Made by a program: the position numbers and the translations under genes. 64,000 nucleotides of DNA from Poseidonia sp. (lineage in GTDB: Archaea; Thermoplasmatota; Poseidoniia; Poseidoniales; Poseidoniaceae): positions 294,102 to 358,101 of the forward strand of contig JAYQVP010000001.1 of assembly GCA_038148515.1 (NCBI GenBank), written 5' to 3'. Within the stretch, counting starts at the first letter, position 1. Each line of letters opens with the position of its first letter. The notes below the pieces were generated by a model. It did no database searches. It was not told the DNA's origin and saw nothing but the letters and a program-made list of their open reading frames with translations. Positions 2,125 through 43,319 of this stretch are shown piece by piece.

Positions 2125-2133
2125 GGGAAGCGC

Positions 2134-3417: not shown

Positions 3418-3467
3418 TGAACGATGAGAACACTCCCAATCTGAGGCTCAGTGGCGCGAATGTCATC

Positions 3468-3476
3468 ATCGCGGTC
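3468..3476 (+). promoter_or_regulatory. putative archaeal TATA box for the S13-S4-S11-rpoD operon (GATATATGG), with GGTGA SD-like element at 3530-3534
   Basis: AT-rich octamer in an otherwise GC-rich 120-nt intergenic region, ~65 nt upstream of the rps13 ATG. Confidence 0.3.
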
Positions 3477-3539
3477 TTGATATATGGGAGGTTGGTCGGA
3501 GGGATGCTTGACACTGTGGTGTGAACGTTAGGTGAGAAC

Positions 3540-4007: not shown

Positions 4008-4026
4008 TGAATAGGGGGATGAAACG

Positions 4027-4680: not shown

Positions 4681-5063
4681 TGTCTCGCAAGGCCATTGTC
4701 AACATCTTCAGTTCATACAACAACATTCTGATGACGGCCACCGATTTGACCGGTGCTGAAACCATCACAACCTGCAACGGTGGTGAAGTGGTGAAAGCTG
4801 GCAAGGACAAAGGCGGTCAATTTGCTGCCACTCGAGCGGCTGAACGCATGGCGGACGCTTTGAAAGATAAGGAATTCAACGAACTCATCGTCAAGTACCG
4901 TGCACCTGGCGGCAACCTCTCCAACAACACCGGGCCCGGTGCCCAAGCTGCCATCCGAGCGCTGACCCGCGCCGGTATGACCATCACTCGCATTGAAGAT
5001 GTAACGCCCATCGCTCACGACGGCACCAAGAAGAAAGGTGGCCGACGAGGTCGCCGCGTTTGA
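4680..5063 (+). CDS. rps11: 30S ribosomal protein S11 (uS11)
   Basis: [38 protein letters not shown]...[13 protein letters not shown] overlaps the S4 stop (ATGA). Confidence 0.95.
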
Positions 5064-5078
5064 TTTGGGGGACTGACC

Positions 5079-6011: not shown

Positions 6012-6045
6012 GCAGGTTCATGAGCCCGTGGCCCCAGGCAGGGGC

Positions 6046-8098: not shown

Positions 8099-8192
8099 GT
8101 GCGTTGGGCGTTGGCGACACTCAATGAAGCCTCGCACCAGCACCTGCACCGCTGCACGCATCATTGATAACGGAAATCTGTGTCCTCAAGGC

Positions 8193-10874
8193 ATGAACTC
8201 CAACGGCATCTTTGCTGTTCTCCTTTCGGTTTTTTTGGTGATGGGAGCCTTGCCCGTGGATTGCGCAAAGCCCCTTGAGGACCGTCCCGCTCCGGCTTCG
8301 TCGGTTGGCGAAACGGTCACGACCGGGTGGCTGGCTTCCGCTAGCGGCTCCAGTTACGAATTCATCAACGCGATGTTGGCGCTGAGCAACGGAAGCACGC
8401 TCGTTGCAGGTTCGTTTTACCAAGACATCATCTTTAACGGCGATATCATCGGTTTTTCCAGCAACGATTCTTCGTTCGGCGAGGATTTGTACATGGCATG
8501 GATCGGCCCAAACGGGGAATGGAACCATTCGATGAGCACCTCAAGTGGAGGAAACGACAGAATCACATCCTTGGCGCAACTGAGCGATGGCACCATCGTT
8601 GTCGCTGGAGTCTTCTGCGACATGAAACTGGGTGATGTCTGCAACATGACCTTGGGTGAACTCGATCCGCTGCAGAAAGCTGACCCGCAAGATGACAACG
8701 CTGTCTTCGTGGCTGCGATGCACCCCGACGGTACATGGTTGTGGGCCCACGCTTATTCCCATCCCTACCGCCTCGGGATCATGGACTTCATCGTGGACGA
8801 AAACGATGGTCTGCACCTCGGCCTTCTTCATTCAGGACATTTTGAAGTGGACAACCTGTCTTCACCGGGTGTTGAAAGCGTGAACTCCTTGGCCGTCATC
8901 GGCATGGACAGGGATGGCAATCACGAATTCATTCACCCCGTGATGGCCAGCGATTCGCTCGAAATCGAAGGTGTTCTGTGTGCTGATGTTGACGGACGCG
9001 CCGCCATCGCCATCACCTTCTACGGCAATCTCTCTCTCGGCGATTTCACCGTCGAAAACGAAGGAGACTCCAACGTTCTTGTCGCCCATTATTCCAGCAC
9101 AGGGTGGGAGTGGGCAACGGCGGGAGGAGGTGTGGGTGAGGTCAATGTGGCCGCCTGCGCAGCCCACCCCGAGGGAGGCGTCAACATCGTCGGCGATTAC
9201 CGTGATGAGGCGTCCTTTGGAACCCATGACTTGCCCACTGCCGTGTGGGTTGACTTTTACGAAGCCACCATCTCCTCAACAGGGGCATGGACTGGAGCCT
9301 CAGGATTTGGAGGAACGGGTGCCGACCACGCTGTTGACATCTACATCACCCCTCAAGGCACCTCGCTGATCACCGGAAAAATCACCGGATCGTTGACGCT
9401 GGGCGCCTTTGTCCTGGAGGATTTGGACAGCAACAACGACGGCAACCACCACGACATCTTCCTCGCACAGCGTTCCTCTGCAGGAGCGTGGGATTGGGCC
9501 ATTTCTGGAGGTGGCCCCGGCAACGATGTACCCCTCGCTTTGCTCAACGGCGTCAATGGTTCGCCCACCGTGGCATTCACCAGCAACGCCGATGGCGTCT
9601 TCGGGGCTCATTCCTTCGATCAACGCTACCAGTATGACGTCGGTATCTGGATGTATGAAACGGATATCGACAGCGACGGTGTGCTCGACGGTAGCGACAA
9701 CTGCCCGCAACTGGCGAACCCCGAACAGTCCAACCACGACAACGATGCGTTTGGGGACGATTGCGATGACGACGACGATGGGGACGGTGTCGACGACCTG
9801 AGCGATGATTGCCCGCTGGGTGAAGCGAATTGGGCCTCAAATTCACTATCGGACCACGATAGCGATGGTTGTCGCGATCTGAACGAAGACCTTGACGACG
9901 ACGAAGACGGGGTGTTCGACACCAACGACCTGTGCCCGTACGGTCCTGTGGGCTGGGTGTCCACGGTGGAAAACGACATGGAGGGGGATGGGTGCTCGGA
10001 CCAAGACAACGACGGCGACGGATGGGTTGACCAAGCCGACAACTGTCCTTTCGCCGCCAACCCAACACAGGCCGATTTGGATAACGACGGCATTGGGGAC
10101 GCCTGCGACGAGGACAAGGACGGGGACGGCGTTCCTGCACCCACCGACCAGTGTCCTCACGATGTCAATCCGTGGATCTCCTTTTCATGGAACGATTACG
10201 ACGGCGACGGCTGCTTGGACGAAACCATGGACGAAGATGACGACAACGACGGAGTTGAGGACAGCCGTGACCGTTGTTTACTGGGTGCTTCCAATTGGGC
10301 GGAAAACGCCTCAGAACTTGACCATGACGACGATGGATGCGCCGATGCCACCGAAGACGACGATGATGATGACGATGGCGTGAGCGACGCATTGGACCGA
10401 TGCCCTCGGGGCCTTATCGGTGTAGCCGGCATTGGTCAGGACAACGACGGTGACGGATGCATTGACGCGGTCGAAGACGACGATGACGACGGTGACGGGG
10501 TGCTCGACCCGTTGGATGCATGTCCAAACTCCAACCTTGCCGACCAAATTTCGTCCAACGGGTGCAGCCAGTATCAATTGGACGACGACAACGATGGTGT
10601 GTCCAACGCCAACGACTACTGTCAAAACTCCCCTGTGGATGCTATTGTGGATGAACGAGGATGCACCGCTCAAGTTCAGACCGAACCCACATCGAGTGAT
10701 TCAAGCGGCATCGGCCTTGCAGGTTATGTGTTCTTGATGGCCCTGGCCGTCGCAGGATTTGCGTTTTACACGAGCGCCAAACGCCCCGGACCTCCGTTGC
10801 CCCCGATGGCATCGGTGACTTCGGTCGTGCCCACGACACCCGAACGCGAGGCCAAGCCTGCTGAAGAAGAGTGA
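8193..10874 (+). CDS. secreted/membrane-anchored surface protein: signal peptide, beta-rich (propeller-like) domain, array of thrombospondin type-3-like Ca-binding repeats, C-terminal TM anchor
   Basis: MNSNGIFAVLLSVFLVMGALPVDCA (signal peptide). More than 12 repeats of DxDxDGxxDxxDxCP (e.g. DNDGDGWVDQADNCPFAANPTQADLDNDGIGDACDEDKDGDG). C-terminal GIGLAGYVFLMALAVAGFAFY followed by a Pro-rich tail. Confidence 0.8.
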   Translation: MNSNGIFAVLLSVFLVMGALPVDCAKPLEDRPAPASSVGETVTTGWLASASGSSYEFINAMLALSNGSTLVAGSFYQDIIFNGDIIGFSSNDSSFGEDLYMAWIGPNGEWNHSMSTSSGGNDRITSLAQLSDGTIVVAGVFCDMKLGDVCNMTLGELDPLQKADPQDDNAVFVAAMHPDGTWLWAHAYSHPYRLGIMDFIVDENDGLHLGLLHSGHFEVDNLSSPGVESVNSLAVIGMDRDGNHEFIHPVMASDSLEIEGVLCADVDGRAAIAITFYGNLSLGDFTVENEGDSNVLVAHYSSTGWEWATAGGGVGEVNVAACAAHPEGGVNIVGDYRDEASFGTHDLPTAVWVDFYEATISSTGAWTGASGFGGTGADHAVDIYITPQGTSLITGKITGSLTLGAFVLEDLDSNNDGNHHDIFLAQRSSAGAWDWAISGGGPGNDVPLALLNGVNGSPTVAFTSNADGVFGAHSFDQRYQYDVGIWMYETDIDSDGVLDGSDNCPQLANPEQSNHDNDAFGDDCDDDDDGDGVDDLSDDCPLGEANWASNSLSDHDSDGCRDLNEDLDDDEDGVFDTNDLCPYGPVGWVSTVENDMEGDGCSDQDNDGDGWVDQADNCPFAANPTQADLDNDGIGDACDEDKDGDGVPAPTDQCPHDVNPWISFSWNDYDGDGCLDETMDEDDDNDGVEDSRDRCLLGASNWAENASELDHDDDGCADATEDDDDDDDGVSDALDRCPRGLIGVAGIGQDNDGDGCIDAVEDDDDDGDGVLDPLDACPNSNLADQISSNGCSQYQLDDDNDGVSNANDYCQNSPVDAIVDERGCTAQVQTEPTSSDSSGIGLAGYVFLMALAVAGFAFYTSAKRPGPPLPPMASVTSVVPTTPEREAKPAEEE

Positions 10875-13709
10875 TCAGACATAGACGACGGCGGGCGAGA
10901 GCGGCATCGCTGAACCTGAACGTTCGGTGGTGTCAGCATCACTCTCACCCAGCACAACATCCACTTCGGCTACACCCAATTCTTCAGCGATGAACTGCGC
11001 GGCCCGGTTGAGCACGGCCGTTTCGTCAATGCCAAGAAGCAGGTCGGCCTTGGAAGCGTCGTCCCATTTGAAGAGTTGAGGCATCATTTTTTTGCCCCAG
11101 AAGCCCAAGATTTCGCCTTGCCGCTCGCCCTGTGCGATAGGCATGGACTTCAGCACAGGCATGAATTGTTTCGGATGTCCACCGTCTTCCATGAAGCGAA
11201 GGGCTGCTTGAGCCAGCTCAGTTTTCCATGAAGGTGAGACCACGAACGTAGCACCTTGTGCAGATGCACCAAGATGACGTTCAGCCACAGTTTGCACCTT
11301 TCGGGCCTGCTCGAGAACGTTGCGAATGTATTGCTCGCTGGCCAAGGTCAACAACTGTGCCTGCGACAAGGGTTCGGGTACGTCCAGTAAACTCCCGGAC
11401 ACAAAACCCTCCGTGCTTTCGAAGGAGGCCCACCATGTTTCGGCCAAATGCGGCGTGGACACCGAAACGAGTTGCGCCCAAGAGGGAAGGATGGCATGAG
11501 CCACCGAACGGTTGTTCCCGCCCCGACGCACATACCAATTGATGTCCTTGATCACTTCAAAGTGTGAAAGTTCCACCGCCCGACGCAGATCGTACCCGTC
11601 CATCGCAGCGACGAATTCATGTTGGCGTTGTGCAAAGCGGGCTTCCAGCCATGCATCCATTGGCGTTGCCTCTTCCCCCCATGCCAGAATCTGTTGGGGC
11701 ATGGTGGCGAGTTGGGTCATCACACGGTGGTTCGCTTCGAGTGCAGCATCGGACCAGTCCATACCGGCGGTTGGGTTAGCGGCGAAGAGAATGAACAGGC
11801 GGACGGTATCGGCGCCAAAGCGTTCAATCATTTCACCGGGCGATACCGTGTTGCCCAACGACTTGCTCATTTTGGCTGAACGAGCGCTCAAGCTACCCTC
11901 GCAGTGCGGGCAAGGCGCGCCTTCGTGGTCCACCGAGAGCGTGATGTTGCACGTCGGGCAGAACGGGGTTGATTTGTTGACCATACCCTGACAGAGCAAT
12001 TCATTGAACGGCTCGTCGATGGACATGAGGCCCAAGTCGCGAAGCGCTTTGGTCATGAAACGGGCATAGATGAGGTGCATTTGCGCATGTTCAATGCCTC
12101 CGCAGTAGAAATCAACCTGCATCCAATGGTCGGCCGCCGCCTCCGCAAAGGCCGCTTCGTCGTTCATGGCGTCGGTATAGCGAAGGAAATACCAGGACGA
12201 ATCGATGAACGTGTCCATGGTATCGGTTTCGCGGCGACCTTCCCCTCCGCAGCTCGGGCAAGAGGCGAGGAGGAAGTCGACTGAGGTTTCCAGCGGGTTG
12301 CCCTGCCCGAACTCAACATCCGTGGGCAACACCACCGGCAGGTCGGCATCGGGAACCGCAACCGGGCCACAGTCGTTGCAGTGAATCACCGGAATGGGCG
12401 TGCCCCAGTACCGTTGTCGGGACACCAGCCACGGCCGAATCTTCCAATTGATGGTGCGGTGGCCACGATTGGCTTGTTCAAGCGCATCGCAAATCGCAGC
12501 CTTGGCGTCTTCGCCGTACAGGCCATCAAAGCCTTCGAGCGTACTGTTGACCATCCATCCGAGATCCGTTTCCGCCTTCTTCATGGGCGCATCGGCGTCG
12601 GCTCCTTCCTTCATCACCAACACCCGCTTGATGGGCAGTTCGTATTGACTGGCAAAATCGAAGTCGCGATCGTCGTGGCCGGGAACAGCCATGACAGCAC
12701 CCGTTCCGTAGGAAGCGATGACAAAGTTCCCGAACCAGATAGGAAGTTCTTCACCGGTCAAGGGATGAACGGCGTATGCGCCGGAAAAGACCCCTTTCTT
12801 CTTGTTCATGTTCTTGATTCGGTCAAACTCAGCCATGCTGGAAACTTCATCGTTGAGTGCCTTCCAGTCTGCCTCGTAGGGCGTTCCTGCGACCAGCGAG
12901 GGCGCCAAGGGGTGTTCGGGAGCGAGCGTAACAAAACTGGCGCCGAACAGCGTATCGGGCCGGGTGGTGAAGACTTCGATATCGCCCTCCCGTCCTGCCA
13001 AAGCAAAGCGAATGTTGGCGCCCTCCGAACGCCCCAACCAATCCCGCTGCAACGCCTTGACGTGGTCGGGAAAATCGATGGTATCAAGTCCGTCCCACAA
13101 CTCTTGGGCGTACGAAGGCAGGTCGAGGAACCACTGGTTCATTTCCTTCTGCGTGACCGGGCCGTTGCATCGCCAGCACCGACCTGCCTTGACTTGCTCG
13201 TTGGCTAATACGGTGGTGCAATCCTCGCACCAGTTCACGGGGGCGTGTTCGCGAGTCGCCAAACCCGAGGCCATAAATCGGGTGAAGAACCACTGGTTCC
13301 AACGGTAATACTTCGGGTCGTGGCTCTTCAATGTGCGACGCCAGTCGTAGGAGAAACCCATTCGCTTGATCTGCTCGGTGATGGAAGCCATGTTTCGCTC
13401 GGTGATTTCGTGCGGATGGCCGCCTTCAGCAATGGCTGCATTTTCTGCGGGCATTCCAAACGAGTCAAAACCCATCGGATAGAGGACATCAAAGCCCATC
13501 ATCCGCTTGAAGCGAGCAACGGCGTCGCCAATCGAGTAATTTCTCACGTGACCCATGTGCATTTTTCCAGACGGGTACGGGTACATCTCAAGGCAGTAAA
13601 AGGCGGGACGGTCGGGATGAATGTCGGCATTGAAAAGGCCGGCCTCCGCCCACCGGCGCTGCCATTCAACCTCGTCCACTTCAACGGGTTCGAACGACAT
13701 GGGCTTCAC
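10875..13709 (-). CDS. leuS: leucyl-tRNA synthetase (archaeal/eukaryotic type)
   Basis: 944 aa. YPYPSGKMHMGHVRNY (HIGH region), CP1 editing domain, and KMSKSLGN (KMSKS). The ORF fills the whole interval. Confidence 0.95.
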   Translation of the reverse strand: MKPMSFEPVEVDEVEWQRRWAEAGLFNADIHPDRPAFYCLEMYPYPSGKMHMGHVRNYSIGDAVARFKRMMGFDVLYPMGFDSFGMPAENAAIAEGGHPHEITERNMASITEQIKRMGFSYDWRRTLKSHDPKYYRWNQWFFTRFMASGLATREHAPVNWCEDCTTVLANEQVKAGRCWRCNGPVTQKEMNQWFLDLPSYAQELWDGLDTIDFPDHVKALQRDWLGRSEGANIRFALAGREGDIEVFTTRPDTLFGASFVTLAPEHPLAPSLVAGTPYEADWKALNDEVSSMAEFDRIKNMNKKKGVFSGAYAVHPLTGEELPIWFGNFVIASYGTGAVMAVPGHDDRDFDFASQYELPIKRVLVMKEGADADAPMKKAETDLGWMVNSTLEGFDGLYGEDAKAAICDALEQANRGHRTINWKIRPWLVSRQRYWGTPIPVIHCNDCGPVAVPDADLPVVLPTDVEFGQGNPLETSVDFLLASCPSCGGEGRRETDTMDTFIDSSWYFLRYTDAMNDEAAFAEAAADHWMQVDFYCGGIEHAQMHLIYARFMTKALRDLGLMSIDEPFNELLCQGMVNKSTPFCPTCNITLSVDHEGAPCPHCEGSLSARSAKMSKSLGNTVSPGEMIERFGADTVRLFILFAANPTAGMDWSDAALEANHRVMTQLATMPQQILAWGEEATPMDAWLEARFAQRQHEFVAAMDGYDLRRAVELSHFEVIKDINWYVRRGGNNRSVAHAILPSWAQLVSVSTPHLAETWWASFESTEGFVSGSLLDVPEPLSQAQLLTLASEQYIRNVLEQARKVQTVAERHLGASAQGATFVVSPSWKTELAQAALRFMEDGGHPKQFMPVLKSMPIAQGERQGEILGFWGKKMMPQLFKWDDASKADLLLGIDETAVLNRAAQFIAEELGVAEVDVVLGESDADTTERSGSAMPLSPAVVYV

Positions 13710-13794: not shown

Positions 13795-16365
13795 TCACTC
13801 AGGAGCGAGGTCCTCGCTGGTCTCCAAGAGGAAAATGGCTTCTCGCGTCAACTTGTATCGGTTCTTCACACCCATCTTGCGGCGCTCGACCAACCCGTAC
13901 TTCTGCAAGGTTCGCAAATGGTGGGAGATGAGCTGTTGACTCTTTTCCAGACGCTTGGCCAATTCGGCTTGAGTTGGGAATTGGCCCATTGCGCCATCAT
14001 GGTCAAGAACAGCGAGAATCTTGCCTTGCAGGCTGTTGGGATCGGGTGACAACAGTGGAACAGGGAGGTCATCTTCGTCCATGTTGGGGTGAAGTTGGTT
14101 CGTGAAGGGATAGTACCGAACTAAGCGTCCGTCACTTTTTCGCCAGACATTTTCTTCAGCCTCCAAGATGCGCAGGTGGTGCGTGATTTGCCCGTTGCTC
14201 ATGTCGAGGGCGCTCATCAGTGCACGGAAATGACACCCTGGATTCGCCGTCAAGTACCCCATCAATCGGCCTCGTTGGTATCGCCCGTCGGTGGTTTCGT
14301 GCGTTTTGCCCACCAAGCCAAGGAACCACAACCCTGCCATCGTGGCGGGAATGCGCAACCCCTCGTTGGTCAGACCGATCGCTAAGACGAGGGACAACAC
14401 CGAGGTGGTGACGACCACGGTGACGACCGTCGCCACGGGGGCAATGGTGGCTTGCTCTTCGGTGACGACGGGGGTGGACGCCTCCTCAACAACCGATGAT
14501 TCCTCCGTTGCGAGCGGCGCTTCATGCAGCACAACCACGACTTCCACCGAAGGTGCGGAGAAGCCTGCGCAAGCCGGAGCGACGCTGGCCTCACGGACGG
14601 TGTACATGCCTTGAACCGAGGATGTTGGGGTCCACGAGCCCAAGGTTCGGGCGTGGGCCAGCAGATACGAGTCGCCGCCGTCTTCGAGGGCAAAGCACGT
14701 GCCTGATTCAGTCATCAAACCCATCCACGTACCGGTGATGTCAAAGGTTGGGGGAAGAACCTCCTCGACCGGTGCCTTCTCGACCTCCGTGGTGAAGGTG
14801 CTCGGCCAGACGATATCGATGGAGGTCTGGCTGGGCGTGACGCTTAGGAAAGTCACGGTCAAGGTGTATTCGCCCTCCGGCACGATGGCTATTCCGTCCT
14901 GAATCATGTTGACCTCAAACGAATCAAGGGCGATGGTGGAGGTTTGGTTGTTCAGCAACAATTTACGGCCGTCAAGAACATCGCAACTGGTCAGGTCATG
15001 ATGGACGCGTTGACCGTTCGTGTCAACGAAATCAACTTGGAACGCGCACGGTTGCTGCATGCGGAGATGTTGCGATTCCAGTACGGTGGACAGCGTCGGC
15101 TCCAACCGAAGACGGTCCTCATCCAGCCATGTCGAGGTGAGGTCCAACAACGCCGGAGTCTGCAGTCCACAATTCTTCGGCAACCAATCGATGTATTTCA
15201 CCTCGTGGACGTCCACCAGACCAAATTGGGGAACTTCCGCAACCACCGTATAGGTTCCCGGGTCTACCTTGCATCCGTCTTCGTTGAAAAAGCGCCACTG
15301 GGGGACGCTGATGACGAGAGGACTGTCCCGGCTTAGGGTCGTTTCAAGGTTGATGGGTTGGCATGTGGTTCCCTCTCGGCTGTCAAACACAACCTCGCCC
15401 AAATCATTCACGACCCACACATCGGCTTTGCATGAGGAGTCGAACACGATGGTTTGGCTTTGTTCGCCTTCCAGTTCAAGCACGACCTCGCCGTTCAGTG
15501 TACCTTCCCTGTCGTACACAATGGTTGATGTGTCATCGGGGACAAAGGTCGCTTTCAATCCCTCAACCGCCACCGTTGGTGCGCTAGGTGTGAGGACAAA
15601 CTCGGTCGAGAATTGGTCGCCGGGGGTCGTCAGGGTCACGGTGGTGGCGACCTCGCTTCGCAGAGCAAGATGGTCGACGAGCAGCAATTCACCGGGCATC
15701 AACCGCTTCAATCCCCCGATGCATGAAGGCCCCAAGGAATACTCATCGCCAATTTTGATCTCAAAGCGGCACGTCGGGATGTCCGAAAGGTCAACGGGTG
15801 AAGTGGTCGGGTTGTGGAGGTTCACGATGTAGACCACCGTGCCGTTGGCCACTGAATCGCGGGCCACGGGTTCAACGGCGATCTTCAAACTGGACGGGAG
15901 AGTGACCGGTGTCTGGATGGTTGCTGACATCCGCTCGGACATACCGCTTCCAACATGAACCACCTCAACAGTGTAGGAGCCGCTTTCCAACCAGTCGCCG
16001 GTTTCGTCCTTCATGTCCCACGTCAGGGCGTCATAGGTGTGGCTGTCCCCCTCGTCAAGGTTCATGCCTTGTTCAGCGGATGGGCACCGTTCCACCCCGT
16101 TTACAACGAGCACACCCGTTGCATTGTACACGTTGAGAGCAACCTCACACTGCGGGTTGGTCAGGAGTTCGACAGCCGGCCCGATGTTGACCAGAGAGGG
16201 CGTCAGGACCAGAGGATGGTCGACATCGTACCACGGGCGGTCCACCGGCTCAACGCTTGACGTCCATTGGACATCGCCCGTTTCAGCCGTCACCAAACCG
16301 GCGAACAAGGAGGCGAGCAGGACACCCACCAACGCCAAACGTCGGCCTGTCGGCTGCTCGCCCAT
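13795..16365 (-). CDS. type I membrane protein: signal peptide + ~600 aa extracellular beta-sandwich domains + single TM + two cytoplasmic winged-helix (ArsR/TrmB-like) DNA-binding domains
   Basis: RRLALVGVLLASLFAGLVTAETG (signal peptide). VATVVTVVVTTSVLSLVLAIGL (TM). LMGYLTANPGCHFRALMSALDMSNGQITHHLRILEAEENV and ILAVLDHDGAMGQFPTQAELAKRLEKSQQLISHHLRTLQKYGLVERR (two wHTH). Overlaps the upstream adhesin gene by 14 nt (same strand). Confidence 0.7.
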   Translation of the reverse strand: MGEQPTGRRLALVGVLLASLFAGLVTAETGDVQWTSSVEPVDRPWYDVDHPLVLTPSLVNIGPAVELLTNPQCEVALNVYNATGVLVVNGVERCPSAEQGMNLDEGDSHTYDALTWDMKDETGDWLESGSYTVEVVHVGSGMSERMSATIQTPVTLPSSLKIAVEPVARDSVANGTVVYIVNLHNPTTSPVDLSDIPTCRFEIKIGDEYSLGPSCIGGLKRLMPGELLLVDHLALRSEVATTVTLTTPGDQFSTEFVLTPSAPTVAVEGLKATFVPDDTSTIVYDREGTLNGEVVLELEGEQSQTIVFDSSCKADVWVVNDLGEVVFDSREGTTCQPINLETTLSRDSPLVISVPQWRFFNEDGCKVDPGTYTVVAEVPQFGLVDVHEVKYIDWLPKNCGLQTPALLDLTSTWLDEDRLRLEPTLSTVLESQHLRMQQPCAFQVDFVDTNGQRVHHDLTSCDVLDGRKLLLNNQTSTIALDSFEVNMIQDGIAIVPEGEYTLTVTFLSVTPSQTSIDIVWPSTFTTEVEKAPVEEVLPPTFDITGTWMGLMTESGTCFALEDGGDSYLLAHARTLGSWTPTSSVQGMYTVREASVAPACAGFSAPSVEVVVVLHEAPLATEESSVVEEASTPVVTEEQATIAPVATVVTVVVTTSVLSLVLAIGLTNEGLRIPATMAGLWFLGLVGKTHETTDGRYQRGRLMGYLTANPGCHFRALMSALDMSNGQITHHLRILEAEENVWRKSDGRLVRYYPFTNQLHPNMDEDDLPVPLLSPDPNSLQGKILAVLDHDGAMGQFPTQAELAKRLEKSQQLISHHLRTLQKYGLVERRKMGVKNRYKLTREAIFLLETSEDLAPE

Positions 16366-16423
16366 GTGGAAACATGCCCCCTTCTCCTTTGAAAGGCCAG
16401 CGGTGCAAACGGTGCGTGAAGCC

Positions 16424-19400
16424 TCAGTAGTTGTCAAGGTCCATCATCGTTGGAATCGCAGCCTCGGCGGCTGCCTGCTGTTGAAGTTCGTGCTGCTTCC
16501 ACTCGGGCAACCCTTCCGTGCCCTCCCAGCCCAATGCACGGGCTTCGGCGTAGTTGCCCTGGGACACGTAATGTTGAATCCAAGCCTGCCGTCGTTCCTC
16601 TTCTTCAGCGAAGGATTCGTTCATCATCTGCTCTTCCCGCTTGACTGCCAACGCCTTACGCTTGCCGGCTGCCCGAGAGATTTGCGCGACGAAAATCAGA
16701 GCCAGCATGAACAACACGGCGCCCAGCATCATGGTGATGGTGCCGGACTGGCCTTCGAGGAAGCCTTCCTCCTCAGCCGCTGGTGCGTTGGGGTCGGAGG
16801 TGATCGAGCACACGGCGGTGCTCTTTGCTCCTTCGAACACCTCAGGGTCCCACGGACACGGGTCGTACTCGTCAGCAGCGCCGTCACCGTCCACATCAGG
16901 GCATCCATAGTAATCCTCGCGATACGAAGTCCCAGGGACCTTGTTGCAAGAATCGTATTGGTAGCCCGTTGCGTTGTCGCCGTAGCCGTCACCGTCAAAG
17001 TCGAGCCACTGGCTGGCGCGAAGGGGGAAGTTATCCACGCGATTGGAACTGCTGATATTGTCACCCCAGCCGTCGCCGTCCACGTCGGACCATTGTGAAG
17101 CGATGGTCGGGAAGGCGTCGCCGCGTTGATCGCGCAGTACGAGGAACATACCCTCGTTTTCTTCATCTGCAACCGTCATGTTCTCCCAGAAATAGTTGTC
17201 ACCGTAGCCGTCGCCGTCGCTGTCCATCCACTGTTCGTGGTCTTCAGGGAAGGCATCGTCGACATCGGCGAAGCCGTCGAGGTCGGCATCGGGGCAGCCC
17301 AGTCGGCCCTCTTTGGTGGATTTGCCAAAGACCTCGACGCAATCGTCGCCGTTGGGCACCGCGGTGTTGTCGCCATAGCCGTCACCGTCGGCGTCGGCCC
17401 ACTGGAAGGGGTCGTTGGGGAACGCGTCCAAGGGGTCGGTGACGCCATCGAGGTCACTGTCAGGACAACCCCGGGATTCGGCTGCTTGGGATTCGCCGTA
17501 TTGCAGGGGACAGATGTCTCCGTTGTTGCCCTCGATGTTGTCGCCGTAGCCGTCGCCGTCCTCATCACTCCATTGGGTGGCGTCCGAAGGGAAGGCGTCA
17601 CCGTTGTTGCCGCCGGGGTTGTCGCCGTAGCCGTCACCATCGGTGTCCTTCCACTGGCTTGAATCGTCGGGGAACGTATCGGGGTTGTTTCCGCTAGCAT
17701 TGTCGCCGCGGTTGTCACCGTCACGGTCCGACCACTGCGTGGCGTCGTCGGGGAAGGGGTCGCCGGCGTTGGAGTACCCGTCGCCGTCCCGGTCAGCACA
17801 CCCTTGTCGGTCCACGGTGGAGGTGCCAGCCGATGAAGGACAATCATCAGCGTTGTTCCCGCTGGAGTTGCTACCAAAGCCATCACCGTCTTCGTCGCAC
17901 CACTGGGTAGGGTCGTTGGGGAACGCATCAGCGCCAAAGCAATCGGGCGTTGAGGGCCAGCCGGGTGTTTCGTCGGAGAAACCGTCGCCGTCCGTGTCCA
18001 CGCATCCCAAGCGGTCGTATTGCGAGGTCCCGGGGGTGGTGGGGCAACCGTCGGCTCGGTCGCTGTTTTGATTGTCGCCAAAGCCATCGCCGTCGGTGTC
18101 GAGGTGCTGAGTTCGGTCGAGCGGGAAAGCGTCGGGCTCGTTGGCGCTCGGTAGCAGCAGACCCGGCCATGTGCTCGGACGGTTGGGGCTCCACGAGGCA
18201 TTCTCGTAGTTGTCGCCGTAACCGTCACCGTCGGTATCATTCCATTGCGTTGGGTCGTTGGGGAAGGCGTCGCCGCTCTGGTTGACTTGGAATTGATACA
18301 CGTCGAGGTCGAAGTAGTAATTGTCACCGTGACCGTCACCGTCCGAGTCCATCCATTGGGCGGGGTCGGCCGGTGCCCAATCGCCGGCATCCGACCAGCC
18401 GTCACCGTCCCCATCGGGGCAACCGTATCGATCTTCGGTCGAGGTCCCGGGGACCGTCACGCATTCGTCGGGCTGGTTGGCAGGGGCGGGGTTGTCGCCG
18501 TACCCGTCGTTATCGGTGTCGTCCCATTGGGTGCCGTCGTCAGGGAAAGCGTCCACGATGCCGTCGCCTTGGTCCGTTGAATTGTAGCCGTCGTTGTCGG
18601 GGTCCAAGTCGGCAAACAGGAAGTACACGCCTTCGTCGTTGCGCCCCACCGAGAGGACCATGTCGTAACCACCGGGGTGCCATGCAAGGCCGTAATGAGC
18701 ACCGCAGTTGTTGTTTTGGAAGGAGGTGCAACCACCAGGTTGAGGCGTCGAGTACGTATCGACCTGCGCCCCTGAGGTTGTTTGATAGAGGAAGGTGGTC
18801 GCACCATCGGTGCCGTAGTAATTGAGGGCGTAAGCCACTTGCGTGCCGTCGGGTGAGAACTCCGTATCAAAACAGGTCGTGGTCATGGATTTCTGAAACA
18901 GTTGAGCCCCCGTCATCATGTTCCATACACCGCCTCGGGCCGGCTGTTGACCTCCTGCAGTGCACGCCGAGACGAGGGTCCCGTCAGGTGAAATGTGAAC
19001 GGCGTTGTAGTTGTAATTCCCGCTGGAGATGGTTCGGACCACTTGCCAGTTGGAGGTGTTGAGGATGAAGATGTCGCCGTCTGCACCAACCGCCATTCGA
19101 GTGCCGTCCGGGGAGAAGGTCACGGACGAGAAGGTGTTGCCGTTGCCGGGTGTGAGCTCTTGCCACAATGATCCGGTGGCGATATCGAAGAACATCACCG
19201 AACAGCCGCTGCAACCACCGCCACCGCCACCGCTGGTTTCATCGACCACTGCGAATGACGTGCTGTTGGCCATGAAGGCCACGTCGGAGAACAGGCGAGA
19301 ACCTCCGGTGTGCGTCAATCCGGTGTGGATGGCCGTGAGGTTGTTGGCCCAGAAGACGGCTGCCGTGTCATCGGACAGGGTGGCTGCGATGTATTGACCG

Positions 19401-19867
19401 TCAGGACTCCAATCCACGCTGCAAATACCGGCTGAACCGCCGCCCCATCCACCAATGCAACTCCCGCTCGACACGAGAACGGCGGAAGACACCACGTTCA
19501 CGTGGGTTGAGGTGTTCCAAACCCGAAGTTGTGTGGCCGAAGCGGTCACGGCCAGGTCGCCCGAGGGGTTGTAATCCACAGCGAGGATGTCGTAACTGGT
19601 CGTGAGCACCATTTCGTTTGAAAAATTGGGATTGTTGGAGGTCCATCCATCGGCGGCATCGGAGGTGCCGTCGCCGTCGCGGTCGGGGCAACCGGTGCGA
19701 TCCACCGTTGAATCTCCCGCTGCAAACGGACAATCATCCAGGGCATCGTCAACGCCATCCCCGTCTGAATCTGCTGCTTGGACAGCGGGTAGGGAGCCTA
19801 GCACCATCATGGTGATGAGAACGAAGGCGAGAAGTCGGCGGACTGGGCGTTCGGAAACAGAAGCCAT
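16424..19867 (-). CDS. large surface protein: signal peptide, TSP3-like Ca-binding repeats, beta-propeller (WD40/PQQ-like) region, long second TSP3-repeat array, C-terminal TM anchor and short cytoplasmic tail
   Basis: MASVSERPVRRLLAFVLITMMVLGSLPAVQA (signal peptide). DSDGDGVDDALDDCPFAAGDSTVDRTGCPDRDGDGTSD and dozens of further DxDGDGxxDxxDAFP repeats. ITMMLGAVLFMLALIFVAQI (TM), followed by a tail with repeated E and Q residues. Confidence 0.8.
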   Translation of the reverse strand: MASVSERPVRRLLAFVLITMMVLGSLPAVQAADSDGDGVDDALDDCPFAAGDSTVDRTGCPDRDGDGTSDAADGWTSNNPNFSNEMVLTTSYDILAVDYNPSGDLAVTASATQLRVWNTSTHVNVVSSAVLVSSGSCIGGWGGGSAGICSVDWSPDGQYIAATLSDDTAAVFWANNLTAIHTGLTHTGGSRLFSDVAFMANSTSFAVVDETSGGGGGGCSGCSVMFFDIATGSLWQELTPGNGNTFSSVTFSPDGTRMAVGADGDIFILNTSNWQVVRTISSGNYNYNAVHISPDGTLVSACTAGGQQPARGGVWNMMTGAQLFQKSMTTTCFDTEFSPDGTQVAYALNYYGTDGATTFLYQTTSGAQVDTYSTPQPGGCTSFQNNNCGAHYGLAWHPGGYDMVLSVGRNDEGVYFLFADLDPDNDGYNSTDQGDGIVDAFPDDGTQWDDTDNDGYGDNPAPANQPDECVTVPGTSTEDRYGCPDGDGDGWSDAGDWAPADPAQWMDSDGDGHGDNYYFDLDVYQFQVNQSGDAFPNDPTQWNDTDGDGYGDNYENASWSPNRPSTWPGLLLPSANEPDAFPLDRTQHLDTDGDGFGDNQNSDRADGCPTTPGTSQYDRLGCVDTDGDGFSDETPGWPSTPDCFGADAFPNDPTQWCDEDGDGFGSNSSGNNADDCPSSAGTSTVDRQGCADRDGDGYSNAGDPFPDDATQWSDRDGDNRGDNASGNNPDTFPDDSSQWKDTDGDGYGDNPGGNNGDAFPSDATQWSDEDGDGYGDNIEGNNGDICPLQYGESQAAESRGCPDSDLDGVTDPLDAFPNDPFQWADADGDGYGDNTAVPNGDDCVEVFGKSTKEGRLGCPDADLDGFADVDDAFPEDHEQWMDSDGDGYGDNYFWENMTVADEENEGMFLVLRDQRGDAFPTIASQWSDVDGDGWGDNISSSNRVDNFPLRASQWLDFDGDGYGDNATGYQYDSCNKVPGTSYREDYYGCPDVDGDGAADEYDPCPWDPEVFEGAKSTAVCSITSDPNAPAAEEEGFLEGQSGTITMMLGAVLFMLALIFVAQISRAAGKRKALAVKREEQMMNESFAEEEERRQAWIQHYVSQGNYAEARALGWEGTEGLPEWKQHELQQQAAAEAAIPTMMDLDNY

Positions 19868-20084
19868 GATTCGCCATGGATGTTCAAATAAAAGCGTTGT
19901 TCTTGATTTGCTCTGTTTTGCATCATGCCCCAAACGTTGGCATCGTCGTTGAAAACGAAGCACTGCACGACCGATAAACCAACCATGGGCCTTCCCATGC
20001 AGAGGCGGCCATCCGATAAGACGGGGCATTAGACCGTACCGATGCACGAACTGTATCTTATGTGGGTCTACAGAGGGTTGAATT

Positions 20085-20112: not shown

Positions 20113-21072
20113 TTGCAGTGCGAAATAATGCGAGTTCTGATAACGGGCGGAGATGGATTCATTGGCCAAAATTTAGCGCTAAGTTTACTCGAACGGGGAG
20201 ATGATGTCGACATATTGGATAATCATGTTACATCAAAACCAACACTCAACCATGAAAATCTTTCAAGAACGGTAGGTGATGTTTGTGACATTTTCGACCT
20301 CATTTCCGAAGATGAGGGGCCTGATGTCATTGTACATCTTGCTTCTGTTGCAATTCCAAAACTGTACATGAAAGAACCTGATTTTGTTATTCGGCCAAAC
20401 GTAATTGGCACAAACGAAGTTTGTAGATTGGCTGAAAAATACAAATCCAGAGTCATTTTTGCCTCAACGAGTGAAGTATACGGTTCAACCATTGATAATT
20501 CAACAGTAGGAACTTCATTATCCGAAGATTCGGATTCACATTCATCTTTGCTAAGCCCAAGAACACCATACTCCATCTCCAAAAAAATGGGAGAAGAAAT
20601 TATTCGTTCGTTCGTCCACAAAGGAAATTCAGGTTGCTCAATCCGGTTTTTCAATGTAGTTGGCCCGAATATGGATCACGCAGTCCAAGGTTACGGCCGA
20701 GTTATTCCAAATTTCGTGGATTCGATTGTTCAAAATGAGCCCCTCACGATATACGGGGATGGTCAGCAAACTCGGTGCTTTTTATGGATAAGTGATGCAG
20801 TTTCAGCATTGTTGAAATTAATTGATTTTGAGAGTGAACTTCCACTCGTAGTGAACATCGGGCATTCTCAGCAGACATCAATATTGAATCTTGCACACTT
20901 ATTCAACGAAATTTCAGGTACTCAAAACGCGATAGTTTTCTCTGAAAAATTACCCGATGAGCCAAAGCATAGAAGACCAAACATATCGCTCGCTAAATCA
21001 ATATTGGATTGGGAGCCTACAAAGGAATTACGTGATATTGTTTCTACAATTTTGAGCGAGGTTTCGAAATGA
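20113..21072 (+). CDS. NAD-dependent nucleotide-sugar epimerase/dehydratase (SDR, UDP-glucuronate decarboxylase/4-epimerase-like)
   Basis: VLITGGDGFIGQNL (Rossmann GxxGxxG). YSISK (catalytic YxxxK). Low-GC codon usage. Confidence 0.85.
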   Translation: MQCEIMRVLITGGDGFIGQNLALSLLERGDDVDILDNHVTSKPTLNHENLSRTVGDVCDIFDLISEDEGPDVIVHLASVAIPKLYMKEPDFVIRPNVIGTNEVCRLAEKYKSRVIFASTSEVYGSTIDNSTVGTSLSEDSDSHSSLLSPRTPYSISKKMGEEIIRSFVHKGNSGCSIRFFNVVGPNMDHAVQGYGRVIPNFVDSIVQNEPLTIYGDGQQTRCFLWISDAVSALLKLIDFESELPLVVNIGHSQQTSILNLAHLFNEISGTQNAIVFSEKLPDEPKHRRPNISLAKSILDWEPTKELRDIVSTILSEVSK

Positions 21073-22061
21073 AAATTCCGTTATCAAAGCCCAAAATAGA
21101 CTCCCAAAAAAACATGGTCATCGACGTCACCTATGTTTGTAATTACAGCTGCAATTATTGCCGTTGGGGGTCTTCAGATACCCCAGGTAGATTTCATCAA
21201 TTACTTGAGAAGATTCTCGTTGAGAGAAAGGAACTTGAATCCATCGGAGTTGAAAGAATTGTTCTTTCGGGAGGCGAACCATTGCTGCACCCCGATATCA
21301 ACGAAATCGTACGCCACTTTTCCAATCTCGTTGAAGATGTTATATTGATCACGAATGGTTGGCTAGCAGATTTTTCGAAAATTAAAACCTTAATCGATAA
21401 TGGCTTGACTGGTGTCGCCTTTTCGATTGATTCAATAGAACCCTCAATATTACAGGCCTCAAGAGATATGACTGAGAAACAGATTGAACGATCGCTAACG
21501 AATTTCAAAACTATTTCAGATGCACGCAATCGCAAAGAAATTTGTGTAGAATTAGGAATTAACTGTGTTGTGTCCTCTGCTAATTGTTCAATGAAGAGTA
21601 TTTCCAATTTATTGGAATGGTCTGTATCGCATAATTTGGATTATGTTAATTTTAATATGATATTTGATGATGGATATAGCGGCATTCATGCACCTCAGCT
21701 TCTTCTCACGCAATCCCACACAAATGAAATACTCACTATTGCGAACTTCCTCAACTCACAACCTCCGAACATTCACACCAATTCCTACACGTTTTGGCTA
21801 ACAATTGCAGCGATGCTGAATGGATCTAAACTCGACGGTGCATCATGTGGTTTAAGGGATAGGCAAACCCTTCTTTACAGAGGGAAGTATCATTTCTGTG
21901 CATGGTTAGAAAATCCCACTTTGGGCGAGGTTGGTGCAACGAATGTAGATACTGTTACAAAGGCTAGAGCCAACTTCCAAAAGGCATCTAGAGAATGTTT
22001 TACTGGACCGCATTGCCATTGTTTACAAAGCACCAATCACGAATGGGAGTTGATTCATTGA
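21069..22061 (+). CDS. radical SAM enzyme with C-terminal Cys-rich (SPASM/twitch-like) region
   Basis: CNYSCNYCRWG (Cx3Cx2C) near the N-terminus, and LSGGEPLL. The C-terminal CGLRDRQ...HFCAW...RECFTGPHCHC has 6 Cys. ATG overlaps the upstream stop (ATGA). Confidence 0.8.
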   Translation: MKIPLSKPKIDSQKNMVIDVTYVCNYSCNYCRWGSSDTPGRFHQLLEKILVERKELESIGVERIVLSGGEPLLHPDINEIVRHFSNLVEDVILITNGWLADFSKIKTLIDNGLTGVAFSIDSIEPSILQASRDMTEKQIERSLTNFKTISDARNRKEICVELGINCVVSSANCSMKSISNLLEWSVSHNLDYVNFNMIFDDGYSGIHAPQLLLTQSHTNEILTIANFLNSQPPNIHTNSYTFWLTIAAMLNGSKLDGASCGLRDRQTLLYRGKYHFCAWLENPTLGEVGATNVDTVTKARANFQKASRECFTGPHCHCLQSTNHEWELIH

Positions 22062-23176
22062 TGACTAAAGATGCGATAACATTGGATATTGTTATCCCAT
22101 CATTTCGAGCCGATGTTGCCGTTCTAAACTCAATTCGCAATCTTTCCATTCCGAAGAATATGATTCGCAAAATAATTGTCGTTTTAGATGACCCTGTACA
22201 CCCTCTTCCGCGCGAGTTGGATGATTGGTCGACTTTTGACGACCTCATCATAATCAGGAATGAAGTGAATCTTGGAGCAAGTGGTGCTCGAAATCAAGGA
22301 ATCGATGCAGCACGTTCTGATTGGGTATTATTCTTAGATGACGATATTTATCCTGAACCGGACTTGCTCCATGTTTATGCCAAGAGCATTGAAGAGAAGG
22401 GGCGCGAAGTCCCTGGTTTTGTGGGTGTTACGCGTCTACCAGAAACAGTCAGTTCCTTTACGAAAGGAATTGTGGCATCTGATATACTGACGTTTTTCGA
22501 TCTTGCAGAACATCGCGAACACATGCCATGGGGCGTGACTGCTAATTTGTTGGTTCGAAGAGATGCAATTGGAAATCATCGATTCAAATCGATATTTCCC
22601 AAGTCCGGAGGTGGAGAGGATATTGATTTCTGTTTGGAAATTGTCAATTCATTCGGCAAGAACTTCTCCACAGAACCAAATGCAGTTGTTCATCATCCAT
22701 GGTGGAATAATTCTACCCGTACCTACCGCCGTTTCTTTAGATGGGCCTATGGGGATTCAAACCTGCCTGCACTCCATCCACAACATCGATGGAGAAATTT
22801 CCCGAATACAGCAGAATTGCTCATCATATGCCTGTTGAGTGTCATCCCATTCATCCTCGTCGACGAATCCTCTCCAAAATTGATGCTTCTTACCGTTTCA
22901 GGAATTGTTATTGGTGAGTTTTTTTCAGAATGGTTACGGCTTCTTCTTGTCAAATCTATAAAAAATCCATTAACGGCAATCGAATCTTCGTGTGTGCGAT
23001 TTTCGAATGATCTCGGCCGAGTAAAAGCAGTTTTAGAATCAATGAAACTTTGGAGAATTTCTGAAAGGTTCGATTATGCAGCTACCGGCGAGTGGATCTG
23101 GGGTGAAAGGAGGTGGGCATTTGTTAGACTCGCCTGGCAAATTTTCTTCTGTGTTTTGTTATGGTGGTTAACATGA
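22061..23176 (+). CDS. family 2 glycosyltransferase (GT-A, DxD) with C-terminal transmembrane helices
   Basis: LDIVIPSFRAD, ASGARNQGIDAA, and FLDDDI (DxD). C-terminal hydrophobic segments. ATGA overlap with the radical SAM gene. Confidence 0.8.
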   Translation: MTKDAITLDIVIPSFRADVAVLNSIRNLSIPKNMIRKIIVVLDDPVHPLPRELDDWSTFDDLIIIRNEVNLGASGARNQGIDAARSDWVLFLDDDIYPEPDLLHVYAKSIEEKGREVPGFVGVTRLPETVSSFTKGIVASDILTFFDLAEHREHMPWGVTANLLVRRDAIGNHRFKSIFPKSGGGEDIDFCLEIVNSFGKNFSTEPNAVVHHPWWNNSTRTYRRFFRWAYGDSNLPALHPQHRWRNFPNTAELLIICLLSVIPFILVDESSPKLMLLTVSGIVIGEFFSEWLRLLLVKSIKNPLTAIESSCVRFSNDLGRVKAVLESMKLWRISERFDYAATGEWIWGERRWAFVRLAWQIFFCVLLWWLT

Positions 23177-23943
23177 TTGGCACAGATTTACCTATCATTC
23201 GGTCTTTTTGGTTCGGCAAACCACTGAATTGGATTTGTCATCTCTCAATGAAATCGTATCTTCGCCAAGGTCATACTTTTGAGTTATACTGCTATGAAGA
23301 CCTACCCGTCCCAGAAGGTGTCATTCGTATGGATGCAAATGAAATAATTCCTGAATCAGCATCGTTTCAAATGATGAAGTCAGTAGATGGGATTAGAGGT
23401 AGATACTCGACGTTTGCAAACATCTTTCGATACAAACTGCTGTTCGAGAAGGGGGGCGTTTGGTCCGATTTAGATTCTATTTGCATAAAACCGTTGATTT
23501 TTGACGATAGTATCGAGGTCATGTTTGCAACGGAAAAGAGTCGATCGGGTATTGAAATAAATAATTGCAATATTTTTGTGTCGAGAAGCGGAAATCCGTT
23601 GTTCGAGAAACTTTACACCTCAGCCATACATCAACGATTGGAGTCTCTCGAACATCTGAGTTTCAACAAGGATTACATCATTGAAACGATGGAGAAAATG
23701 GGGATTGATTGGACGGCGTATGCCTCGCCAAGCAAAATGTTTTGTCCGATTCCGTGGTTTAAAATCCATCAACTCTTCAGTCCCAAACATGAATTCGAAT
23801 TGATGAAAATGATTGAACATACATATGCAATCCATCTCTACAACAACATCATAGAAGCGGATTATCCGGAATTCCTCATCTCCAAACGCAATAAAACATC
23901 TTTTATATCTAACTTAGAATCTTTTGTTGAGTCTCTTGATTGA
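23173..23943 (+). CDS. GT32-like glycosyltransferase (Gly_transf_sug DXD-containing, OCH1/capsule-type)
   Basis: IIRSFWFGKPL..., FANIFRYKLLFEKGGVWSDLDSICIKP (signature of the GT32 DXD family). ATGA overlap with the GT2 gene. Confidence 0.7.
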   Translation: MIGTDLPIIRSFWFGKPLNWICHLSMKSYLRQGHTFELYCYEDLPVPEGVIRMDANEIIPESASFQMMKSVDGIRGRYSTFANIFRYKLLFEKGGVWSDLDSICIKPLIFDDSIEVMFATEKSRSGIEINNCNIFVSRSGNPLFEKLYTSAIHQRLESLEHLSFNKDYIIETMEKMGIDWTAYASPSKMFCPIPWFKIHQLFSPKHEFELMKMIEHTYAIHLYNNIIEADYPEFLISKRNKTSFISNLESFVESLD

Positions 23944-43310: not shown

Positions 43311-43319
43311 CTTTTGACC

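Follow-up and report, generated by a model that had tools for sequence, protein, structure and literature searches.

Introduction

Transcription regulators in which an extracytoplasmic sensor, a single transmembrane (TM) helix and a cytoplasmic winged helix are joined in one polypeptide are represented by ToxR, CadC and TcpP, and their activity is frequently adjusted by a second protein in the membrane (ToxS, TcpH) or through proteolysis. The same combination of elements is predicted for gene B of a 64,000-nt stretch of Poseidonia sp. DNA (the window, to which all coordinates refer unless another locus is named). Upstream of gene B lies gene A, which encodes a surface protein with calcium-type repeats. 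Both are on the minus strand, within a span (13795-20047) of two long open reading frames (ORFs), and both of the reading frames assigned in the initial annotation were confirmed as real genes. Gene B differs from the ToxR type in its domain order: in ToxR and CadC the DNA-binding domain is N-terminal and a signal peptide is absent, whereas gene B has the opposite order and falls outside the ToxR/CadC group. The winged helix also differs, being a single OmpR/Trans_reg_C domain in ToxR, CadC and TcpP and a tandem of ArsR/MarR type in gene B. No Trans_reg_C match was obtained with Pfam, and no sequence relationship with the ToxR/CadC type was found.

In archaea, the main text of a recent census counts 1,384 transmembrane transcription regulators (TTRs) in 367 of 404 species (Demey et al. 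2023, PMC10269533). The census gives a class definition rather than a characterised family (PMC10269533), and gene B shares with this class a predicted TM region together with a DNA-binding domain, likewise predicted, in one polypeptide. According to its main text the single-pass form, which is also that predicted for gene B, is the commonest TTR type (PMC10269533). By term, the main text of the census has no mention of Thermoplasmatota, ArsR/MarR, a C-terminal DNA-binding domain or a signal peptide, and in the same main text no description was found of type-I proteins with a C-terminal tandem winged helix-turn-helix (wHTH) or of pairing with a surface protein (PMC10269533). ArnR and ArnR1 of Sulfolobus acidocaldarius are, like the predicted product of gene B, archaeal membrane-bound one-component regulators; they have been studied experimentally and control the archaellum and pili (PMC6396743). 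ArnR consists of a helix-turn-helix at its N-terminus, a HAMP-like domain, a cytoplasmic sensing domain and two C-terminal TM helices (PMC6396743). It is without a large ectodomain, and gene B, in a comparison of domain descriptions, does not have the ArnR architecture. With TTRs catalogued and ArnR/ArnR1 characterised, the statement of the initial annotation that no archaeal system of this kind had been described was too strong.

The cytoplasmic domains of gene B match those of the ArsR/SmtB and MarR repressors and of HVO_0163 from Haloferax volcanii (PF24266), including the recognition helix. Classical ArsR/SmtB/MarR members are small soluble homodimers, whereas gene B carries a tandem fusion of two such domains on a membrane anchor. 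HVO_0163, after which the Pfam family of the first winged helix is named, is listed in one paper as an ArsR-type transcription protein that rises under hypochlorite stress.

Marine Group II (MGII) archaea are the most abundant planktonic archaea of ocean surface waters and were uncultured at the time of analysis (PMC6461757). Thrombospondin type-3 (TSP3) proteins, implicated in adhesion, are described in the main text of the same study as widespread in MGII (Rinke et al. 2019, PMC6461757). Gene A and a protein encoded at 7992-10874 belong with these, although the repeats of gene A are not recognised by Pfam TSP_3. The main text of that study is without the term 'transcriptional regulator' and appears not to link calcium-repeat proteins to one (PMC6461757). 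Thus, the class of gene B is known; what is new is its architecture and a recurrent, apparently unreported pairing with calcium-repeat proteins. The most satisfactory explanation of the observations taken together, which we consider probable, is that B is a single-pass transmembrane regulator, transcribed from its own promoter, that couples sensing of the state of the cell surface to predicted DNA binding.

Results

Two tandem winged helices at the C-terminus of gene B

Two tandem ArsR/TrmB-like winged helices had been proposed for residues ~640-880 of gene B, and Pfam, PDB profiles and superposition of an AlphaFold2 (AF2) model all agree with the proposal. The first winged helix matches Pfam HTH_HVO_0163_N (PF24266) at residues 697-754 (E = 1.9e-14; 53.9 bits against a cut-off of 31) and gives a PDB profile match to 5duk_A (E = 7.7e-10 with the family profile). 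Its elements follow the order H-S-H-H-S-S in the AF2 model. The second winged helix matches Pfam HTH_5, HTH_24 and MarR/MarR_2 at 780-830, all above cut-offs, and the NCBIfam model HTH_metalloreg (ArsR/SmtB) at 55.9 bits against a cut-off of 55; by PDB profile it matches SmtB/ArsR, and it was aligned to SmtB 1r22. The NCBIfam equivalog models for specific metal sensors all scored far below their cut-offs on gene B. ArsR-like recognition-helix signatures are present in both winged helices. Gene B has the winged-helix fold and the recognition helix of ArsR/SmtB, in a comparison confined to these two features. With the PF24266 match and a second winged helix directly downstream, it also has an HVO_0163-like tandem module.

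In the AF2 model of the C-terminal 237 residues, two H-H-H-S-S units are seen, and Foldseek superposes the model on SmtB with 1.5-1.9 A rmsd over 74 residues. Fold matches that span both units include the tandem winged-helix proteins TFIIIC, an RNA polymerase III subunit (RPC34-type), ScpB and ESCRT-II. The two winged helices of gene B could form an intramolecular pseudo-dimer for the predicted DNA binding.

Membrane segment, topology and ectodomain of gene B

Residues 641-666 are the sole 19-residue hydropathy window above 1.6 outside the signal peptide, and AF2 places a helix at 642-666. Within this helix T653, S655 and S658 are conserved polar or helix-destabilising residues. Any likeness of gene B to proteolysis substrates of the RseA, RsiW or SREBP kind is limited to these three residues. 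Right after the TM helix, and missed in the initial annotation, is a second hydrophobic helix of 15 residues (672-686), which follows a NEGLR loop; the corresponding AF2 helix is 668-685. This juxtamembrane element is nearly invariant across gene B orthologs and its Glu is kept throughout the whole family. The polar residues of the TM helix and the juxtamembrane helix are candidates for a transduction or cleavage element.

The flank on the N-terminal side of the TM helix has 0 positive and 4 negative charges; beyond the short helix there are 4 positive charges and 2 negative ones. The net charge of the cytoplasmic module is 0 to +3, and the module contains a single Cys (the conserved C711), cysteines and acidity being confined to the N-terminal part of the protein. 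From the charges, the cysteines, the hydropathy and the comparison of paralogs, gene B is predicted to be a single-pass type-I protein with N-out/C-in topology, in keeping with the one TM helix and N-out orientation first assigned to it. A second membrane span at 672-686, which would place the winged helices outside the cell, was also considered and rejected: the segment is too short and the charges favour a cytoplasmic C-terminus. The short helix is not a conserved second span either, because in the 330-aa paralog a basic amphipathic stretch, DEPTRAKMARSMGRFSQLRV, is found in its place.

The N-terminus of gene B is an AxA-type signal peptide, MGEQPTGRRLALVGVLLASLFAGLVTA, followed by ETG. The hydropathy peak of this region covers residues 7-30, the AF2 helix residues 6-23, and the AxA motif is kept in the homolog alignment. 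In the AF2 model (built with 31 homologs), residues 30-620 are all-beta, with ~5 sandwich domains and pLDDT mostly 80-92, so that both the signal peptide and the ~600-aa beta-sandwich ectodomain of the initial annotation hold. The ectodomain has 12 invariant Cys and a net charge of -62 to -88, and is predicted to consist of disulfide-bonded beta-sandwiches. A Pfam BsuPI match was found at 284-378. Foldseek matches were to macroglobulin and Ig-like domain arrays (complement C5, alpha-2-macroglobulins, CEA), and for the model these appear to indicate no specific function.

Gene B belongs to a large archaeal family

At E <= 1e-3, an exhaustive HMMER search with residues 640-856 of gene B retrieved 1930 representative clusters (at 50% identity); with the limit set to E <= 1e-10 the number is 277. 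Among the full-coverage matches checked, the module is always at the extreme C-terminus, and the region before it ranges from almost nothing to ~1300 aa. Among the ectodomains are CARDB, NPCBM_assoc, He_PIG, Big_9 and NosD. The smallest members consist of the TM helix and the module alone, and soluble tandem-wHTH relatives, which resemble ordinary small regulators, were also found. In their source annotations the relatives are called 'predicted transcriptional regulator', MarR/ArsR family, or uncharacterized membrane or DNA-binding protein, and the organisms named among the annotated members are Poseidoniales and Methanomassiliicoccales. Shorter 'paralogs' of 244-330 aa were considered as separate architectures and set aside; most are incomplete gene calls of the same ortholog or pieces of it on contig fragments. 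No published study of the family was found in the literature on HVO_0163, COG2512, archaeal C-terminal wHTH membrane proteins or MGII regulators. These results place gene B in a large, uncharacterised archaeal family of predicted type-I transmembrane regulators.

Gene A is a TSP3-like calcium-repeat protein

From N- to C-terminus, the product of gene A comprises a signal peptide, a pair of TSP3-like motifs, a WD40 propeller, a DxDxDG stalk, a TM helix and a cytoplasmic tail. Gene A thus itself encodes a type-I membrane protein, its TM helix and tail having been missed in the initial annotation. The propeller scores above the Pfam gathering thresholds (PF00400, 43.8 bits against a cut-off of 27; ANAPC4_WD40 PF12894, 26 against 22.9), and long alignments to propeller families cover residues 92-347. 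By regular expression 20 DxDxDG motifs are present, ~8 of them in a GCPDxDGDG context; in the stalk, two types of repeat alternate, AFPxDxxQWxDxDGDGYGDN and GCPDxDGDGxxD. Pfam TSP_3 (PF02412) gave no match on gene A at E <= 0.01, and none at E <= 10 on residues 420-1147. Similarity to the TSP_3 protein at 7992-10874 is weak by BLASTP (E = 8e-4). Of the earlier description of gene A as a TSP3-repeat/beta-propeller protein, therefore, the propeller and the DxDxDG repeats stand and membership of Pfam TSP_3 does not. A more accurate name is TSP3-like calcium-repeat protein, calcium binding being predicted from the motifs.

A second surface protein with calcium-type repeats is encoded at 7992-10874 (plus strand); it matches Pfam TSP_3 (E = 2.1e-29), contains 14 DxDxDG motifs and has a TM helix at its C-terminus. 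Its gene is convergent with that of LeuRS; it was detected in most of the 80 related loci described below and is missing in the distant L157 and L159.

The module family is recurrently associated with calcium-repeat proteins

When one genome per species was scanned, relatives of gene B were found in 153 genomes, and 80 loci were retained. Nearly all of these are labelled Poseidoniales or carry broader archaeal names, with one bacterial label, and MG-II assembly CM001443 is included. The gene order in the 80 loci is STAND/AAA_16 ATPase (opposite strand), A, B, LeuRS, TSP3 protein, TPD protein and RpoD. In more distant orthologs, probably of MGIIb, it is A, B, LeuRS, TPD, GHMP kinase, RpoD, S11, S4 and S13. 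In both groups an ortholog of gene A is 5' of B in every locus with enough upstream sequence. Because the whole block is syntenic, conservation of the A-B pair is inseparable from general synteny.

A neighbourhood survey of homologs had been suggested as a check on adhesin-regulator pairing, and the pairing does recur in independent contexts. The first is L160, a locus on a 3-Mb contig of 68% GC that is without LeuRS synteny. Five genes on one strand (1-12179) encode an A-like protein, a 148-aa membrane protein, a 1263-aa type-I protein and tandem family members of 852 and 865 aa. The A-like protein is upstream of both family members and has 18 DxDxDG motifs, a C-terminal TM helix and tail, and BLASTP similarity to A of 2e-48.

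The second is a paralog of 330, 345 or 355 aa, which is followed on the same strand by a ~990-aa protein in every locus long enough to show both (loci L098-L153; for example 9500-10489 and 10545-13520 in L112). The ~990-aa neighbour carries a lipobox-like signal; its beta-rich domains are repeated, and it contains 7-11 DxDxDG or DxNxDG motifs. At L098 (43% GC) this pair is kept, with a 1-nt overlap, and no other flanking ORF is shared at E <= 1e-8.

In the third context the two parts are fused. A 1207-aa paralog (L085, 7079-10699; also in L084 and L086-L089) carries five to seven TSP3-like CxDxDxDG repeats in its own ectodomain, N-terminal to the TM helix and tandem-wHTH module, with BLASTP similarity of 5.6e-9 to the TSP_3 protein. 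Proteins rich in DxDxDG are otherwise rare: none of the 31 other large ORFs in the window is of this kind, and in the paralog loci only 2 of ~300 ORFs are (one gene, in two loci), family members and adjacent neighbours being excluded. These results give moderate support to a functional association of the module family with calcium-repeat proteins; it applies at the level of the family and is not proof for A and B specifically.

Several observations weigh against B as a surface-sensing regulator that works with A. The A-B adjacency is part of a longer conserved gene order, shared by all the Poseidoniales examined, and in many lineages an opposite-strand MBL-fold gene stands between A and B. For three paralog groups (549, 602 and 1096 aa) the surrounding 7 kb contain no calcium-repeat neighbour, and other family members adjoin PKD or propeller proteins instead. 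The head of A and the ectodomain of B show no co-variation once LeuRS identity is controlled (partial rho = -0.02). As to the module itself, the AF2 confidence for the C-terminal part of gene B is moderate (mean pLDDT 71.5), and its fold matches include ScpB and ESCRT-II, tandem winged-helix proteins that are not transcription factors. Mirror-tree style partial correlations between parts of A and parts of B were also calculated and were discarded as uninformative, because the control gene, the STAND ATPase, correlates equally well.

B might be a transmembrane regulator whose adjacency to A is merely inherited gene order, so that B senses and regulates unrelated things and A is an independent adhesin. 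The synteny from STAND ATPase to RpoD, which extends over the 80 loci and the more distant ones that are probably of MGIIb, speaks for this, as do the separate promoter-like elements of A and B (see below), the B motif not being found upstream of A. The same holds for the genes that can separate A and B, in L159 a histidine kinase as well as the opposite-strand gene, and for the lack of co-variation and the three paralog groups without calcium-repeat neighbours. Against inherited order stands the pairing outside the syntenic block, as in L160, in the 330-aa paralog with its ~990-aa neighbour and in the TSP3-like fusion, set beside the very low background of DxDxDG-rich proteins. We regard it as a serious alternative, though an unlikely one.

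The cytoplasmic module of gene B is more conserved than LeuRS

Identities to the proteins of the window were compared across loci. The cytoplasmic module of B has a median identity of 86.5% (minimum 75%), close to that of RpoD (86%; minimum 55%) and above that of LeuRS (72%; minimum 65%). The values for gene A are 67% for the repeat stalk (minimum 26%, from a non-orthologous match, and 57% among clear orthologs), 64% for the cytoplasmic tail (45% to 86%) and 44% for the propeller (36% to 64%), which is the most divergent portion of A. The ectodomain of B has a median of only 33% (25% to 45%). Gene B is an order-wide gene whose module exceeds the LeuRS next door in conservation while its ectodomain is among the fastest-evolving sequences of the neighbourhood. 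Judged from these comparisons, extreme constraint acts on the cytoplasmic module, and the distal ectodomains of both A and B are fast-evolving.

Such constraint is unusual for a lineage-specific regulator, and it would suit a module that acts as a constitutive tether or adaptor between the envelope and either the nucleoid or some other conserved machine of the cytoplasm, in the manner of ScpB or ESCRT-II. The presence of gene B across Poseidoniales (153 species genomes), embedded among housekeeping genes, and the fold matches to ScpB, ESCRT-II, TFIIIC and RPC34-type tandem winged helices fit this as well. Both domains, however, match ArsR/MarR DNA-binding families by sequence, down to the recognition helix, the soluble relatives look like ordinary small regulators, and a conserved motif upstream of B fits the gene of an autoregulated transcription factor. 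A purely structural role of this kind is quite unlikely.

Gene B has its own start codon and promoter-like element

Two start codons are possible for gene B, a TTG (16437) and an ATG (16365). All 30 full-length gene B homolog clusters (850-883 aa) start with the MGEKP methionine that matches the ATG product, a stop codon excludes any in-frame start 5' of the ATG in many of the related loci, and the signal peptide starts immediately after the ATG at 16365. For these reasons ATG 16365 is assigned as the start of gene B, and TTG 16437, which the homologs do not use, was rejected. A and B are therefore 58 nt apart (16366-16423, from the stop codon of A to the ATG of B). The 14-nt overlap claimed earlier would require TTG 16437 and contradicts the start coordinate (16365) that the same annotation gave for gene B. 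The start of gene A is most plausibly the ATG at 19867.

The A-B spacer contains a motif of the general form TGCACCGCT-N2-CCTTTCAAG (also written TGCACCGCTGNCCTTTCAA). It is directly 5' of B in 75 of the 80 loci, whatever gene precedes, and is retained where an opposite-strand gene separates A and B. The TATA-like element within the spacer has the same position relative to the ATG of B as the BRE/TATA of gene A has relative to the ATG of A, where a conserved ACAAAAACCCCTTTATAT element places a T-run ~26 nt before the start codon in related loci. Both upstream elements look like BRE/TATA promoters of leaderless mRNAs. The upstream half of the B element is highly conserved, which is unusual, and could be an operator. 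Neither the window nor, in the 80 loci, the 10 kb around B contains a second copy of the motif, which gives no signal of a regulon, and the motif was not found upstream of gene A. A scan for sigma-70 promoters and terminators, which uses bacterial models not relevant to archaea, was uninformative.

The A-B spacer is 55-59 nt in the closest genus-level group and 65-70 nt in another group. In ~20 of the 80 loci it is ~800-900 nt and holds an opposite-strand MBL-fold hydrolase gene, and in three more distant orthologous loci the gap is ~800-900 nt or more, again with an opposite-strand gene. The MBL-fold (Lactamase_B) hydrolase is ~250 aa and was seen in many MGIIa genomes as well as in the distant, probably MGIIb, loci (L043, L046, L055, L066, L079, L157 and L159). 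In L159, a hydrothermal-vent metagenome contig, a PAS-HisKA-HATPase histidine kinase (3309-4511) additionally lies between the A-like gene and the MBL gene, immediately 5' of the B ortholog. Because the MBL gene is present in distant loci and absent from the lineage of the window, the tight spacing in the window may be a derived state; and because it intervenes in many lineages, co-transcription of A and B is not required.

The overlapping or abutting stop and start codons of a coupled operon are absent from A and B. The earlier view that the two are almost certainly co-translated is not supported, B having its own conserved promoter-like element and the MBL gene intervening elsewhere; A and B do not appear to form an obligate operon, and translational coupling is unsupported. 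A true two-gene operon with translational coupling is very improbable. In its favour, the genes share a strand, are 58 nt apart here and similarly close in the nearest relatives, no strong T-rich terminator is seen after gene A, and read-through is possible in this genome. Against it, the overlap rests on a TTG unused by homologs, the conserved TATA-like element of the spacer is as far from the ATG of B as the TATA box of A is from its own ATG, and the B element is kept in front of B in loci where an opposite-strand gene intervenes.

Discussion

The reading of B as a single-pass transmembrane regulator builds on the observed domain architecture, family membership, separate promoter-like motif and recurrent genomic association with calcium-repeat proteins. 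In the mechanism we propose, B would be transcribed from its own promoter in the 58-nt spacer, without translational coupling to A, and the Sec signal peptide would export its acidic, disulfide-bonded stack of beta-sandwiches. With the N-out topology predicted here, the ectodomain may then sense the state of the cell surface by binding a ligand, by binding particles or through interaction with the neighbouring protein A, so that the nature of the signal and any physical A-B contact are putative parts of the scheme. The calcium-repeat partner could serve as a co-sensor or modulator. The signal would be relayed via the TM helix and the juxtamembrane element, and the tandem winged helices would change their predicted DNA binding, either while held at the membrane, as in ToxR, CadC and ArnR, or once released by proteolysis.

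A broader proposal, which we put forward only tentatively, is that the family forms a dedicated outside-in module with the calcium-repeat proteins that adjoin its genes or are fused to its members, by which attachment of MGII archaea to particles or cells, or the Ca2+ state of their surface, would be communicated directly to transcription without kinases or second messengers. The contact- or Ca2+-dependent signalling put forward in the initial annotation is a hypothesis of this kind. If B is a true signalling device, cell surface and genome would be linked by a simple route that needs no kinase. Such a device would also be a testable handle on the attachment biology of MGII, because its DNA motif, soluble domain and partner proteins have been defined, and it would bring into view a large branch of archaeal TM regulators (at least 277 representative clusters, with CARDB, He_PIG and NosD among the ectodomains). 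If it is not, the finding reduces to a correctly annotated predicted regulator beside an adhesin.

Features of the locus and neighbouring genes

Table 1. Features of genes A and B in the window
Feature	Coordinates	Strand	Description
Gene A	16424..19867	-	1147 aa; type-I surface protein; ORF listing
Gene A TATA-like box	19885..19894	-	CTTTTATTTG; T-run starts 26 nt before ATG
Gene A beta-propeller head	18608..19594	-	Residues ~92-420; Pfam WD40
Gene A stalk	16838..18604	-	Residues 422-1010; 18 DxDxDG repeats, regex listing
Gene A TM helix and cytoplasmic tail	16427..16741	-	TM residues 1043-1063, tail 1064-1147 (84 aa); hydropathy
Promoter/operator-like motif of gene B	16389..16407	-	TGCACCGCTGGCCTTTCAA in A-B spacer; conserved in related loci
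TATA-like element upstream of B	16387-16394	-	TTTCAAAG; starts 29 nt before B ATG; T-rich part CCTTTCAA
Gene B	13795..16365	-	856 aa; predicted type-I TM protein with C-terminal tandem winged helices; ORF listing and homologs
Gene B signal peptide	16285..16365	-	Residues 1-27; predicted cleavage between VTA and E (between ASA and D in homologs)
Gene B ectodomain	14446..16284	-	Residues 28-640; ~5 predicted beta-sandwich domains, 12 invariant Cys, net charge ~-62
Gene B TM helix	14368..14445	-	Residues 641-666; invariant polar T653, S655, S658
Gene B juxtamembrane element	14308..14367	-	Residues 667-686; NEGLR loop and short hydrophobic helix IPATMAGLWFLGLVG
Gene B winged helix 1	14107..14286	-	Residues ~694-753; Pfam, PDB profile and AF2
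Gene B winged helix 2	13819..14031	-	Residues ~779-849; ArsR/SmtB-like; recognition helix SQQLISHHLRTL

Upstream of gene A, a gene at 24182-25732 (plus strand) encodes an N-terminal wHTH-like segment and an AAA_16/STAND NTPase. It is divergent from gene A wherever both are found, including L157, and its product could be a conserved regulator of gene A. Between the two genes is an island (20113-23943) of 40% GC, in a genome of ~58-60% GC, with genes for an NAD-dependent epimerase, a radical SAM protein, a GT2 glycosyltransferase and a Gb3-synthase-like glycosyltransferase. As the spacer from A to the STAND ATPase is usually only ~50-250 nt in related loci, the island appears to be a strain-specific insertion of glycosylation genes.

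Low GC (47-49%) is found again at 36000-46000, in a stretch that includes a 1792-aa ORF (37932-43310, minus strand) and neighbouring ORFs. A 166-aa ORF at 53065-53565 (minus strand) begins with MQNENRNEEAVSPVIATILMVAITVVLAGVLYVWAS, which we take to resemble an archaeal type IV pilin-like (class III) signal peptide.

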